Shown here: one piece after another, positions 17,832-24,217 of the stretch | Position numbering within the stretch: position 1 is the stretch's first letter | Layout: each line of letters starts with the position of its first letter | Source of the DNA: Saprospiraceae bacterium | Lineage (GTDB): Bacteria; Bacteroidota; Bacteroidia; Chitinophagales; Saprospiraceae | NCBI GenBank assembly: GCA_047629355.1 | Contig: JBLHWU010000002.1 | Span: 948 to 64,947, forward strand | DNA length: 64,000 nucleotides | Direction of reading: 5' to 3' | Made by a program: the position numbers and the translations under genes | The notes under the pieces: model-generated | What the model was told of the DNA's origin: nothing | Databases searched by the model: none | The model's input: only the letters and a program-made list of their open reading frames with translations

Positions 17832-18236
17832 TTGATAGCAAAAATTTTACATATCCTATTTGCCTTTCTGGTGCTGCTTAGTTCCATAGGTATTACGGTA
17901 AAAAAACACTACTGCCAAAACAAACTGGAGAATGTCTCTTTTTTACCAACTTCGAGCTGTTGCAAAACAGCCAAACATCACGCCTGCAAAAAATCCGATA
18001 CTGATTGTAAGAAAGGATGTTGCAGCAACGAATTAGAATACATTCACCTTGACCAAGACTTTCAAGTTCAAAAAGTAAATGCTTTTTCGCTTGACCAAAT
18101 TAAAATTGCGGCAATTTTCACGGCTGTTTTTGAGGTTGATTTAACGCATATCACCGCAATTAAAAATTATACTAATTATAAACCACCCATTATCCGCTCG
18201 GATATTTCGGTTCTTTTCCAAGTTTTTCGTTTGTGA
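17832..18236 (+). CDS. HYC_CC_PP-type small membrane-anchored Cys-rich protein
   Basis: N-terminal TM helix, then KKHYCQNK, SSCCKTAKHHACKK..CKKGCCSNE and YKPPII. This matches my recollection of the Bacteroidota HYC_CC_PP family; the family name is recalled, not searched. TTG start as in the track. Confidence 0.6.
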   Translation: MIAKILHILFAFLVLLSSIGITVKKHYCQNKLENVSFLPTSSCCKTAKHHACKKSDTDCKKGCCSNELEYIHLDQDFQVQKVNAFSLDQIKIAAIFTAVFEVDLTHITAIKNYTNYKPPIIRSDISVLFQVFRL

Positions 18237-18320
18237 ATTATTGCCTTCCTTCTTTTTTCTACTCGATGTAATCAGGCATCGTAGTAGCTAAAAATGTTTC
18301 CTATTATTTTAAAATGATGT

Positions 18321-18394
18321 GAGCCGCTGCGAGGCGACTTGTACCGTTGGAAGCTACCTTTTCTACAAACAGTAGCGAGGTGAGTCCGCTTTTT
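18321..18394 (-). repeat. Degenerate REP-like copies
   Basis: ctacaaacagtagcgaggtgagtccgcttttt resembles the inverted REP unit at 3790-3820. The neighbouring ggcgacttgtacc motif recurs at 45124 and 49641. Confidence 0.45.
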
Positions 18395-18434
18395 ATTAAA
18401 GCCTAGCTTTTAGCATTTTCTAAAACATTAAAAA

Positions 18435-18674
18435 ATGAAAAATATTAGAACTGCTTTTTTACTCTTAGCCCTCTCATTTATAGGGCTCTCCTTTTCCGCT
18501 TGTGGCGATTCTGCCACGGATAAAACCGAGCAAAAAGGCAAAGAATACACAGCAAATTATGTTTGCCCGATGCACTGCGACAGTAGCGGAAGCGAAGAAC
18601 CAGGCAAATGTCCGGTTTGTGGAATGAACTACGAGAAGAATAACGACCATCAACCAGATGGACACAAGCACTAA
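18435..18674 (+). CDS. Small lipoprotein with heavy-metal-binding HMBD motif
   Basis: Lipobox LSFSAC, then YVCPMHCDSSGSEEPGKCPVCGMNY and a C-terminal His-rich tail (DHQPDGHKH). Confidence 0.8.
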   Translation: MKNIRTAFLLLALSFIGLSFSACGDSATDKTEQKGKEYTANYVCPMHCDSSGSEEPGKCPVCGMNYEKNNDHQPDGHKH

Positions 18675-18765
18675 TCATTAAAAATTAATCGAATTATTCA
18701 CCCATTATAGTCAGCGTAAAGCTTACTAAATACAGGTAAATAGTCCAACTTAAAATAGCTAAAAT

Positions 18766-20946: not shown

Positions 20947-21026
20947 ATATTAATTCAGAAGCAGTTTTGTTAAGTAATTTTCAAGACTGCTTCCTTTTCT
21001 TTTTTTAACTTTTAAATATTATACAA

Positions 21027-21995
21027 ATGAAGAATTTTTTACTAACTTTTGTAGCAATTATTTGCTTTAGCGTTGGTTCAACCGCACAAAATAACATTCA
21101 ACTGGAAATCAATCATAAGTTAGGCACAGACGATTTCGCCATGAATCAGACTGCTACCAACAACATGGAAAACAATTACTATTACTCGCGTTTGCAATAT
21201 TACATTTCTCAAATTTCTATCGTTCACGATGGCGGTACAGAAACCTTGATGGAAAATACTTACATTTTAGTCAATGCTGCCAATGCCACCCAAGTGGACT
21301 TAGGCGACCACAGTATTGATGCAGTCGAAGGCATCAAATTTTCTATTGGTGTCGAGGAAGCAGTTAATCACAGTGACCCTGCTTCTTGGGCAAATGGGCA
21401 TCCATTAGCTCCAAGTTTCCCGTCAATGCATTGGGGTTGGAATGCAGGCTACCGTTTTATTGCCATTGAAGGCAAAGGTGGTTCGAATTTAGGGCAGACT
21501 TTTCAGTTACACGGTTTAGAAGACATCAACTATTTTCAGACCGAGATAGACTTAACTGCTACATCTGAAAATGGAGCAATTACCATTACTTTAGATGCAG
21601 ATTATGAAAGAGCTTTAGAAAATATTGATGTAGATGGTGGGGTGATTGTTCACGGTAGCACTGCGGAAGCGAAAACAGCTCTTGAAAATTTCCGCGACCA
21701 CGTTTTTAGCGCATCGGGTGTTACTTCAACCGTTGATTTCAGCGAGGTGAATGACTTCCAAATTTTCCCAAATCCAACCGCTAACGGACAAGCAAATTTC
21801 TTGGTCAACAGTACAGAAAATTTGACTTATGAAGTAGCCGTAACCGACGTTTTAGGGCGAAATATTCAGTATTTTCCAGCAGTTCAAAGTAATACTTCGG
21901 TAGTGATGAATTTGGAAAACACAGGCTTGTTTATCGTAAGTTTGATTAAAGAAGGCAAAGCGGTGATTACTAAAAAATTGATGGTCAACTTTTAA
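21027..21995 (+). CDS. MbnP-family (copper-binding, MbnH partner) protein with T9SS CTD
   Basis: The segments LQYYISQISIVHDGG and SMHWGWNAGYRFIAIEGKGG match my memory of MbnP-family sequences. It is followed by di-haem peroxidase genes. CTD: FQIFPNPTANGQANF...GLFIVSLIKEG. Confidence 0.6.
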   Translation: MKNFLLTFVAIICFSVGSTAQNNIQLEINHKLGTDDFAMNQTATNNMENNYYYSRLQYYISQISIVHDGGTETLMENTYILVNAANATQVDLGDHSIDAVEGIKFSIGVEEAVNHSDPASWANGHPLAPSFPSMHWGWNAGYRFIAIEGKGGSNLGQTFQLHGLEDINYFQTEIDLTATSENGAITITLDADYERALENIDVDGGVIVHGSTAEAKTALENFRDHVFSASGVTSTVDFSEVNDFQIFPNPTANGQANFLVNSTENLTYEVAVTDVLGRNIQYFPAVQSNTSVVMNLENTGLFIVSLIKEGKAVITKKLMVNF

Positions 21996-22079
21996 TAATG
22001 ATGAATGATAAATGTTGAATATTTGAAAGCATCGTTATTCATCTGAAATTTATCATTCAACATTTATCATTCAAAAATT

Positions 22080-23111
22080 ATGGCTTTATTAAATTACATA
22101 CGACGGTTTTGCTTTTGGCTACTCATTTTACTGGCGCTGTCCTGTCAAAATGAAAAGAAGGTAATCCCCTCGTATGTACCTTCATTGATGGAAATTCCGC
22201 AAGGGTTTCCATCAATTGATTTTCCTGAAGGGAATGCGTTTTCAGAAACCCGTTGGGCATTGGGAAAGAAACTATTTTTTGACCCCGTAATGTCAGCAAA
22301 TAGTTCGATTAGTTGCGCCACTTGTCACCTTCCCGAATTGGCATTTAGTGACAATCAGGCATTTAGTCCAGGCGTAGAAAATCGACCAGGAACACGCAAT
22401 GCTTCACCACTATTCAACTTGGCATATCATCCTTATTTTACCAGAGAAGGAGGCGTACCAACCTTGGAAATGCAGATTTTAGTCCCTATCCAAGAACACA
22501 ACGAATTTGATTTCAACATTGTCCTAATTGCCGAACGGTTGGCACAAGATAGCACCTACCAAACGATGGCACAATTGGCGTATGACCGCGAACCGGATGC
22601 TTTTGTAATTACCCGTGCCTTAGCGAATTTTGAAAGAAGTTTGCTAAGTGGATATAGCCGATATGACCAGCATTTTAACTATGATTTAGATAAAATCTTG
22701 ACCGCTTCTGAGCTTCGAGGACGCGATTTATTTTTTAGCAAAAAAACGGATTGTGCGAACTGTCACGGTGATTCTAACTTCACCAATTATGATTTTCAAA
22801 ACAATGGTTTGTACGAAAGCTATGAAGATGTCGGACGATTTCGGCTAACGGGATTGGAAGCAGACCGGGCTTTATTCAAAGTCCCAAGTTTGCGAAATAT
22901 TGAATTGACTGCGCCGTATATGCACGATGGTTCAATGGTTTCTTTGGAGGAAATTGTTGACCATTATAATTCCGGCGGTAAAAACAACCCACAAAAAAGC
23001 AATTTGATTCGTCCTCTAAATTTAACTGATTCAGATAAGAATGACCTTGTAAATTTTTTAAAAACGCTAACCGACGAGGCATTTGTTAGCAATCCAATTT
23101 TTCAAAATTAG
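22080..23111 (+). CDS. Di-haem cytochrome c peroxidase family (CCP/MauG/MbnH-like), copy 1
   Basis: Two CxxCH motifs (CATCH, CANCH) and VPSLRNIELTAPYMHDGS. Confidence 0.85.
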   Translation: MALLNYIRRFCFWLLILLALSCQNEKKVIPSYVPSLMEIPQGFPSIDFPEGNAFSETRWALGKKLFFDPVMSANSSISCATCHLPELAFSDNQAFSPGVENRPGTRNASPLFNLAYHPYFTREGGVPTLEMQILVPIQEHNEFDFNIVLIAERLAQDSTYQTMAQLAYDREPDAFVITRALANFERSLLSGYSRYDQHFNYDLDKILTASELRGRDLFFSKKTDCANCHGDSNFTNYDFQNNGLYESYEDVGRFRLTGLEADRALFKVPSLRNIELTAPYMHDGSMVSLEEIVDHYNSGGKNNPQKSNLIRPLNLTDSDKNDLVNFLKTLTDEAFVSNPIFQN

Positions 23112-23128
23112 CTTTTAAATATACCTAT

Positions 23129-24217
23129 ATGTGTAAACTAAAATACTTATTCATTTTCCTATTGAGCACCCTGTTTTTTATTGCTTGTAGTGACGATGAT
23201 ACGTCCGAGGAAGTTATTCTCATTGACGAAACGCCTTATAATTTGGAATATGGCGCATTGCCTGCTCCTACCCTTCCTGCCGATAATCCTTTAACAATAC
23301 AAGGGGTACAATTGGGCAAAATGTTATTTTTTGAAAAACTAATGTCTAAAGATGGTACACAGGCTTGTGCGGATTGTCACCGTCAACCCGATGGTTTTTC
23401 AGATAGCACTCGTTTTTCAATTGGCATAGAAGGATTGCCAGGCAAACGACAGGCGATGCCGATTTTCAACATGGCTTATCATTCGAATGAATTTTTCTGG
23501 GACGGACGGGCTGAATTGCTGCGTGACCAAAGTTTGATGCCGATACAAGACCCCTTAGAAATGAACGAAACTTTAGAAAACGTAATTGCCAAATTGGCGA
23601 ATGAAAAAATGTACCGTAATCAGTTTACACGTGTTTTTGGGTCAGAAGAAATAACGTCAGTAAAGATGTCTTTGGCAATGGAGCAATTCATGTTGAGCAT
23701 CGTTTCTTATGATTCTAAATACGATCAGTATTTGGCTGGAGCAGCAGAATTGACGGAAAGTGAAGCGCGAGGGTTGGCCTTATTTGAGACAGAATACAAT
23801 CCTTTCTTTCCAGAATTTTCGGGAGCAGACTGTGCTCATTGTCACGGTGGAGCTAATTTTGAAAATGACCAATATATGAATAATGGCTTAGATACCGATG
23901 CCAATTTCATGGATATGGGGCGCGAAAATGCTACAGAAGCGGCGGCAGACCGTGCAAAATTTAAAGTCCCTACTTTGAGAAATATAGCGGTTACTGCTCC
24001 ATATATGCACGATGGGCGTTTTCAAACATTAGAGGAGGTTGTTGACCATTATAACGAAGGTATTCAAGAATCTTCTACGGTTGACCCTGCTATTTTAAAT
24101 ACTAAGGATTCAGGATTATTTTTGACGGATGCCGATAAAGTGGATTTGGTTAATTTTTTAAAGACGCTCACGGATGAGACGTTTTTGGGGAATGAGGAGT
24201 ATCGGTCGCCGTTTTAG
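23129..24217 (+). CDS. Di-haem cytochrome c peroxidase family (CCP/MauG/MbnH-like), copy 2, lipoprotein
   Basis: Lipobox FFIACS, two CxxCH motifs (CADCH, CAHCH) and VPTLRNIAVTAPYMHDGR. Confidence 0.85.
   Translation: MCKLKYLFIFLLSTLFFIACSDDDTSEEVILIDETPYNLEYGALPAPTLPADNPLTIQGVQLGKMLFFEKLMSKDGTQACADCHRQPDGFSDSTRFSIGIEGLPGKRQAMPIFNMAYHSNEFFWDGRAELLRDQSLMPIQDPLEMNETLENVIAKLANEKMYRNQFTRVFGSEEITSVKMSLAMEQFMLSIVSYDSKYDQYLAGAAELTESEARGLALFETEYNPFFPEFSGADCAHCHGGANFENDQYMNNGLDTDANFMDMGRENATEAAADRAKFKVPTLRNIAVTAPYMHDGRFQTLEEVVDHYNEGIQESSTVDPAILNTKDSGLFLTDADKVDLVNFLKTLTDETFLGNEEYRSPF

Follow-up and report, generated by a model that had tools for sequence, protein, structure and literature searches.

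A widespread Bacteroidota version of the MbnP/MbnH system with a T9SS-tagged MbnP-fold protein and two di-haem lipoproteins

The MbnP/MbnH pair of Methylosinus trichosporium OB3b (PDB 7L6G and 6E1C) consists of a copper-binding protein and a MauG-type di-haem enzyme. In MbnP, Kyn174 lies within a WxW motif and the copper ion is coordinated by His, Met, water and the kynurenine (Kyn), and the biological role of MbnP/MbnH pairs is open even for the Methylosinus proteins (PMC11951088). His-Tyr haem ligation is the defining mark of MauG-type enzymes, and a Trp between the two haems is highly conserved across the family, with BthA as a known exception (PMC11892367). A surface or secreted kynurenine-copper protein with a co-transcribed di-haem enzyme is also found in MopE/SACCP of Methylococcus capsulatus and CorA/CorB of Methylomicrobium album (PMC3912023, PMC3621798). 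Here we analyzed a cluster of six plus-strand genes at 17832-24217 of a 64,000-nucleotide stretch of Saprospiraceae DNA, denoted as the window, in which an MbnP-fold protein with a type IX secretion system (T9SS) sorting domain is followed by two MauG/MbnH-type di-haem enzymes, MbnH1 and MbnH2. The cluster belongs to a widespread, uncharacterised Bacteroidota version of the MbnP/MbnH system and is not a new kind of system. A full-text literature search for MbnP returned nothing that ties it to the T9SS or to Bacteroidota. All six co-oriented open reading frames (ORFs) were present, and the families first assigned to them in an earlier note, which was made from the sequence alone, were matched by family models.

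The MbnP-fold protein and its two di-haem partners

The 322-residue protein is a true MbnP-fold relative that carries a T9SS sorting domain, as the earlier note had proposed. Its predicted Sec signal peptide would be cut before a conserved Gln21, and is followed by the MbnP domain and a C-terminal sorting domain (CTD, residues 246-320). Pfam MbnP PF20243 matched residues 22-202 with 109.4 bits against a threshold of 27, and the CTD passed both Por_Secre_tail PF18962 (28.8 bits against 27) and TIGR04183 (38.4 bits against 23). By sequence profile and by structure, the CTD matches the T9SS substrate domain bound to the translocon in 8GLK_D, and it is kept in 84 of 84 relatives. Three further CTD proteins in the same window indicate that the organism uses the T9SS.

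Sequence and profile searches of solved structures with the window protein did not reach 7L6G, and the MbnP of Cupriavidus basilensis, taken from a methanobactin operon in a published supplementary GenBank file, served as the bridge; it matches 7L6G at E 2.8e-79. When 31 relatives of the window protein were compared with 7L6G plus C. basilensis MbnP using hhalign, the two profiles aligned with 87% probability (E 3.7e-6), pairing PSMHWGWNAGYRF with ISGMAWNWQAGRRF of 7L6G and Asn114-His115 with its NHS motif. The MAFFT alignment runs end to end and likewise places PSMHWGWNAGYRF opposite ISGMAWNWQAGRRF, with TFQLH162G opposite TWMVHVG, and in both alignments the WxW region lies opposite GMAWNW of 7L6G and SMSWSW of C. 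basilensis MbnP. The AlphaFold model of the protein had a predicted local distance difference test (pLDDT) value of 89.5, with a dip at residues 232-235. In a Foldseek search with this model, the top six PDB matches were all chains of 7L6G (probability 1.0, E 7e-7, TM 0.43-0.47 over about 250 columns), at a sequence identity of 15-17%. We also considered a MopE/CorA fold and rejected it, as neither 2VOV nor 4BZ4 was among the 50 best PDB structure matches.

The residues around the WxW motif are strictly conserved. Met134, His135, Trp136, Gly137 and Trp138 are each invariant in 84 of 84 sequences from different species, as are Tyr142, Phe144, His162 and His209, and Met134 and His162 pair with the conserved Met and His of 7L6G and C. 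basilensis MbnP. The two Trp residues of the motif, one of which is modified in MbnP, and the Met and His that are candidate copper ligands, whose conservation the earlier note wanted checked, are aligned and invariant, and the predicted kynurenine-copper site is very probably retained in the T9SS-tagged protein. Three His residues that canonical MbnP does not have, His67, His135 and His209, are kept in 82-84 of the 84 sequences, and the loops of this subfamily are shorter than in canonical MbnP.

Both enzymes match CCP_MauG (149.8 bits for MbnH1 and 178 bits for MbnH2) and contain two CxxCH motifs each. The best NCBIfam model for both was MbnH TIGR04039, at 267.7 and 237.3 bits respectively, compared with 193 and 177 bits for MauG. 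Likewise, the best match among solved structures was MbnH 6E1C (4.5e-51 for MbnH1 and 1.9e-48 for MbnH2), ahead of ordinary peroxidases and MauG. Tyr296 of MbnH1 and Tyr308 of MbnH2 lie opposite Tyr294 of MauG, the corresponding Tyr of 6E1C and Met258, the haem ligand of the Nitrosomonas peroxidase. This Tyr is present in 67/67 MbnH1-type and 62/62 MbnH2-type sequences, in which both haem motifs and the distal Gln, Pro and Glu are also invariant. With Tyr in place of the Met haem ligand and MbnH as the best match, an identity as ordinary CcpA was rejected, and the assignment to MbnH/MauG-type enzymes made in the earlier note holds. None of the computational outcomes that the note had named as damaging to its proposal, such as loss of the modified Trp or a CcpA identity of the enzymes, was found.

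The two enzymes differ at the position of the inter-haem Trp. In the column of MauG Trp93, MbnH1 has Arg in all 67 sequences (Arg122 in the window), with no insertion or deletion nearby, whereas MbnH2 keeps Trp in all 62 (Trp124). Identity between MbnH1 and MbnH2 is 39%, while that of either one to a bona fide MbnH is about 35% and to MauG 27-29%, which marks the split between them as old. The duplication, which the earlier note had called unexplained, is an old, conserved pair of paralogues with distinct signatures and not a local oddity, and whether the inter-haem Trp is required in a MauG-type enzyme could be tested on this natural pair. The labour might be divided into successive oxidation steps, separate Trp targets or opposite faces of the membrane, or the two might form a heterodimer. 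Burkholderia BthA (6NX0) resembles MbnH1 in its His-Tyr haem and its lack of the inter-haem Trp, and it still reaches the bis-Fe(IV) state (PMC11892367). BthA differs in that it is larger (477 amino acids), has no calcium site and no known MbnP-like partner, and matches MbnH1 much more weakly than MbnH does (52.9 against 176.9 bits).

Distribution of the three-gene unit and its copper-gene neighbourhood

The architecture of MbnP domain plus sorting domain fills the homologue list, in which the best 120 of 483 clusters are all at least 50% identical. In a motif scan that took one genome per species, at least 569 species-representative genomes encoded an MbnP-CTD relative. The carriers are mostly Saprospiraceae, Lewinellaceae and other Chitinophagales, together with several families of Flavobacteriales. 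Of the 60 loci whose sequence extends far enough downstream, 45 have the order MbnP-MbnH1-MbnH2 and two have variants thereof, which makes 47 with both paralogues; seven have MbnH1 only and six MbnH2 only. The conserved unit is thus these three genes, and their arrangement is not due to chance; the three genes upstream of MbnP in the window are recurrent but not constant neighbours.

Several loci depart from a single copy per genome. Two copies of the module occur in some genomes, one contig has two tandem MbnP genes, and one Flavobacteriales locus encodes a further MbnP of much greater divergence (29% identity), accompanied by an MbnH1-like gene of its own; the loci concerned are L047 and L060 (OZ246004.1), L041 and L080 (Lewinella sp.), L020:17-1957 and L057:16477-18475. 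Three contigs with the module (L051, L054 and L081) are labelled as metagenome-assembled genomes of Alphaproteobacteria, Agrobacterium and Methylophilaceae; to our knowledge, T9SS domains are confined to Bacteroidota and their relatives, and these labels are therefore probably binning errors. The exact sequence of the window was found again in many metagenome samples.

A copper-efflux island begins at the window start, and the cluster forms its downstream end. The families of this island (Cus efflux, YdjM, AraC, CopA, BNR and HMA) flank the module in other loci too, and among 35 loci with long flanks an efflux homologue was found in 14 and a HYC_CC_PP gene close by in 16. When 94 additional co-oriented neighbours were classified with Pfam, multicopper oxidase was the most frequent (seven), followed by T9SS cargo proteins (six) and Crp regulators (four). 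A TonB Plug domain was found in just two of the 94, and the window contains a single TonB-like barrel (38326-41130), which lies 14 kb from the module amid housekeeping genes, so a link with TonB receptors was rejected. The earlier note had suggested copper capture at the surface, and as a route of uptake this is not what the neighbours indicate, since they belong to efflux and detoxification. The module may also travel with these genes. Contig L009 (OZ255727.1, 44,968 bp, labelled plasmid: 1) from a Saprospiraceae metagenome-assembled genome bears HYC_CC_PP and genes for a Cus pump, an HMBD lipoprotein and an AraC regulator in addition to MbnP-MbnH1-MbnH2, which suggests that the copper island can be mobile.

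Cellular location and proposed function

The earlier note had expected a plain signal peptide on one of the enzymes, but both are lipoproteins: the lipobox reads LALS-C22 in MbnH1 and FIA-C20 in MbnH2, and is kept in 66/67 and 60/62 orthologues, respectively. Bacteroidota have a defined export signal that routed the tested lipoproteins to the cell surface (PMC5080379). We scanned for it with a simple pattern, the lipobox Cys followed by K-(D/E)2 at +3 to +5 or an SDDDD-like stretch. An acidic motif of this kind was found in 43/60 MbnH2 and 30/66 MbnH1 sequences, compared with 5/84 among background lipobox ORFs of the same loci. The stretch in the window MbnH2 is C-SDDD, and its usual form in other loci is C-x-K-D-(D/E). 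Taken together, these motifs favour a surface location of at least MbnH2, and the pair may be the first haem enzymes among Bacteroidota surface lipoproteins.

The same note had asked where a secreted substrate could meet its enzymes, and we see no paradox. The T9SS is a two-step route, and cargo exported by Sec has been proposed to reach its folded state in the periplasm and to cross the outer membrane afterwards (PMC10202324), so a periplasm-facing lipoprotein could modify MbnP in transit. Both topologies have precedents, as CorB is found mainly in the periplasm and CorA at the surface, and SACCP shares a surface location with MopE (PMC3912023).

Compared with the Methylosinus and proteobacterial MbnP/MbnH pairs, the Bacteroidota module has the same partner-protein fold, the motif Met-x-Trp-x-Trp-x-x-Gly-(Arg/Tyr)-(Arg/Lys)-Phe with the aligned His, an adjoining MauG-type enzyme with His-Tyr haem and a tie to copper homeostasis genes. 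Its MbnP differs by the presence of a T9SS sorting domain and the lack of a four-Cys motif. A single enzyme is replaced by two, both of them lipoproteins with signals resembling those for surface export and one without the inter-haem Trp. Genes for efflux and detoxification adjoin the module, in place of those for TonB transporters or methanobactin. The MopE and CorA systems of methanotrophs, which are copper-repressed and serve scavenging, have one enzyme rather than two, a His/His/Kyn copper site rather than His/Met/Kyn, and an export route other than the T9SS.

On balance, we lean slightly towards a role of the module as a surface copper sink under copper stress, formed by the T9SS-addressed MbnP-fold protein and matured by the two lipoproteins. 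From what is generally known of the T9SS, MbnP would be exported by Sec, cut before Gln21 and folded in the periplasm. By homology, one or both di-haem enzymes would use H2O2 to turn a Trp of Ser-Met-His-Trp-Gly-Trp into kynurenine, which together with Met134 and His162 would form a single-copper site, as in Methylosinus MbnP. The CTD would then carry MbnP through the T9SS, followed by anchoring at the surface or release. Both enzymes would be outer-membrane lipoproteins, and MbnH2, probably on the outer face, could modify MbnP on that side. During copper stress, MbnP would bind copper at the surface or beyond it and so serve, outside the cell, as a sink or buffer for copper that has been exported. 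A sink is favoured over uptake because Cus efflux genes, CopA, multicopper oxidases and HMA/HMBD proteins are linked to the module and TonB receptors are not.

Several observations weigh against a copper sink at the surface. While the Pfam model of the check proposed in the earlier note was passed, the stricter models were not: the protein reached 48.8 bits against 140 for NCBIfam TIGR04052 (MbnP_like_WxW; 'four-Cys motif protein'), and both enzymes scored below the hypothetical-equivalog cut-off of TIGR04039 (362.85). The four-Cys motif is absent, with 0-1 Cys after the signal peptide in 75/84 relatives, and in the alignment the Cys positions of 7L6G pair with non-Cys residues of the window protein and its relatives. 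Given these missed models and the absent motif, the function may have drifted. As for location, the window MbnH1 begins with C-QNEKK and did not match the export signal, and the work that defined the signal covered Flavobacteriia and Bacteroidia but not Saprospiria (PMC5080379). The link between module and efflux genes is frequent but not universal, as 21 of the 35 well-flanked loci lack an efflux homologue in the range from -6 to +8.5 kb. In addition, proteobacterial MbnPH-like genes accompany genes for uptake and follow leader genes that are repressed by copper (PMC9426467), and MopE and CorA are themselves copper-repressed scavengers (PMC3912023).

Alternatively, all of the chemistry could be periplasmic, with both lipoproteins modifying and perhaps copper-loading MbnP in transit and the T9SS disposing of the copper-loaded protein, a possibility that we take seriously but place below an even chance. 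Attachment of c-type haem occurs in the periplasm, copper-exporting P-type ATPases adjoin the module, and the C-QNEKK start of the window MbnH1 fits as well. Folding of T9SS cargo before export (PMC10202324) and the mainly periplasmic CorB beside a surface CorA (PMC3912023) point the same way, and are opposed by the acidic motif after the Cys of MbnH2, which is far above background and of a kind that routes tested Bacteroidota lipoproteins to the surface (PMC5080379), and by Methylococcus SACCP, a di-haem enzyme located at the surface (PMC3912023). The opposite arrangement, in which maturation is wholly extracellular, with both lipoproteins outside, perhaps as a heterodimer fed by environmental H2O2, MbnP acting as a sink for copper expelled by Cus and HYC_CC_PP setting expression as a new Bacteroidota class of copper-sensing leader analogous to CruR and CutF, seems to us unlikely.

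We regard it as rather doubtful that the secreted kynurenine-copper MbnP is a high-affinity extracellular scavenger which, like MopE and CorA, feeds the cell when copper is scarce. Those proteins are at the surface or secreted, co-transcribed with di-haem peroxidases, copper-repressed and needed for growth (PMC3912023, PMC3621798), and proteobacterial MbnPH-like operons hold TonB-dependent transporters and copper chaperones (PMC9426467); the 21 loci without a nearby efflux gene would agree with this role. Yet the module in the window lies at the end of an efflux island, and it has no linked uptake partner in the related loci, where export and detoxification families recur instead. That MbnP is a surface redox enzyme with a modified Trp in its catalytic site, its link to copper genes reflecting only the need for a cofactor, is in our view quite improbable. 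The extra invariant His residues and the two differentiated maturation enzymes would suit such an enzyme, T9SS cargo is typically enzymatic (PMC10202324), and tryptophan tryptophylquinone is an example of a catalytic cofactor made by MauG-type enzymes (PMC11951088). However, no conserved substrate-related genes lie nearby, the recurrent neighbours being metal-handling, and the only characterised MbnP binds copper and has no known catalysis (PMC11951088).

With at least 569 species genomes, the Bacteroidota branch changes three things in the MbnP/MbnH system, namely a surface-addressed copper protein, two specialised maturation enzymes and partner genes of the export type, and it gives a way into what kynurenine-copper sites are for. 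It also suggests that Saprospiraceae, a family abundant in wastewater as well as marine habitats, have a layer of copper defence that is so far unstudied.

Upstream genes and the rest of the window

The coordinates of the cluster, the copper island and the downstream hairpin are collected in Table 1.

Table 1. Positions of the cluster, the copper island and the downstream hairpin in the window
Feature	Position	Strand	Description
Cus-type tripartite efflux genes	17..7039	+	Resistance-nodulation-division (RND) pump, outer-membrane factor, CusB-like adaptor with HMBD and DUF3347
Remaining copper island	7374..15439	+	YdjM membrane protein, AraC-type regulator, CopA-type P1B ATPase, BNR-like protein, HMA protein, BNR-like T9SS cargo
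HYC_CC_PP / DUF8199, 134 amino acids	17832..18236	+	N-terminal membrane helix; HYC, CC and other Cys motifs; YKPP near C-terminus
HMBD lipoprotein, 79 amino acids	18435..18674	+	Lipobox Cys23; CPMHC...CPVCGM
T9SS cargo, 726 amino acids	18766..20946	+	Choice-of-anchor J domain, middle region, probable six-bladed propeller, type-A CTD
MbnP-fold protein, 322 amino acids	21027..21995	+	Sec signal peptide, MbnP domain, flexible linker, T9SS type-A CTD
Codons Met134-His135-Trp136-Gly137-Trp138	21426..21440	+	WxW motif and upstream Met; predicted kynurenine/copper site
MbnH1, MauG/MbnH-type di-haem lipoprotein	22080..23111	+	Cys22; CxxCH at 79-83 and 225-229; Tyr296; Arg122
MbnH2, MauG/MbnH-type di-haem lipoprotein	23129..24217	+	Cys20 then SDDDTSEE; Trp124; Tyr308
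Hairpin, 16-bp stem	24452..24489	-	Between convergent MbnH2 and RimK-like genes; terminator-like site

The first gene of the cluster, described in the earlier note as a Cys-rich HYC/CC/PP membrane protein, matched NCBIfam HYC_CC_PP NF047658 with 75.7 bits against a cut-off of 28, and its precomputed annotation is Pfam DUF8199. Homologues with a membrane helix, HxC, C, CC and YxPP in common were found 36 times in related loci, directly 5' of MbnP in 10, of the Cus RND pump in nine, of the 79-residue HMBD gene in three, and of others; these loci include the window, L001:2421-2879, L009:2161-2625, L040:9336-9770 and 32 others. By analogy with CruR (DUF2946) and CutF, HYC_CC_PP may be a copper-sensing control element or leader at the head of the operon. 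It is likewise small, exported or in the membrane, has Cys motifs and a Pro-Pro near the C-terminus, and lies directly 5' of copper operons that include MbnPH-type genes (PMC9426467, PMC9973294). It differs in its motifs, which are HYC, CC and YKPP as opposed to CXXC and RAPP, and in its Pro-Pro, which is about 15 residues from the end instead of three. Membership of DUF2946 was rejected, as there was no Pfam match even at E <= 10 and the motifs differ. Furthermore, the spacer 3' of HYC_CC_PP showed no significant RNA structure (z -1.57), so a stem-loop switch like that of CutF is not supported.

The second gene encodes the 79-residue lipoprotein with CPMH...CPVCGM that the earlier note had described, and it matched Pfam HMBD PF19335 with 33.2 bits. 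Cys44, Met46, Cys48, Cys59, Cys62 and Met64 are invariant in 15 orthologues, and there is no acidic motif resembling the export signal after the lipobox Cys. The protein is likely a small periplasmic Cu(I)-binding protein. Many orthologues have DGHxH-rich tails, and those of L040, L041, L045, L048 and L063 have long His-rich ends with DGHNHDGHDH repeats; the end of the window copy is short.

The third gene encodes a T9SS cargo protein of 726 residues that adjoins the module in nine related loci, with a Por_Secre_tail match of 42.7 bits. Of the choice-of-anchor-J and NHL domains named in the earlier note, the former was recovered by NF038128 at residues 23-182 (45.2 bits, cut-off 30, in a scan limited to the N-terminal 300 residues), but the propeller gave only weak matches to Pizza, LRP6 and Vgb_lyase (E 0.004-0.04). 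The motifs WHFM, SHLDMLH and AHE (residues 378-381, 434-440 and 449-451) are invariant and resemble a metal or active site, in a region that no family model covers.

At the start of the copper island, the ORF of the RND pump (ACR_tran, 444 bits) is truncated by the window start; the outer-membrane factor matched OEP with 106 bits, and the adaptor matched HlyD_D23 with 220 bits in addition to HMBD and DUF3347. The CopA-type P1B ATPase has an HMA and two HMBD domains. Two BNR/sialidase-like proteins lie inside the island at 11680-12921 and 13958-15439, one of them with a T9SS domain, and homologues recur in the copper loci of other Saprospiraceae (e.g. L003, L010, L017, L018, L040 and L045). At the other end, the hairpin is likely a bidirectional terminator that closes the operon, and the genes past it are housekeeping genes. 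A sigma-70 scan was uninformative, with 17 sites against 21.7 expected and a model that leaves Bacteroidota promoters uncovered. Further downstream, the 9-bp tandem repeat TAATTCGAT at 28779-28825 (5.2 copies, 97% matches) lies just upstream of a minus-strand glutamate dehydrogenase gene, where it inflates the mechanical ORF to 443 residues, compared with the 411 called elsewhere.

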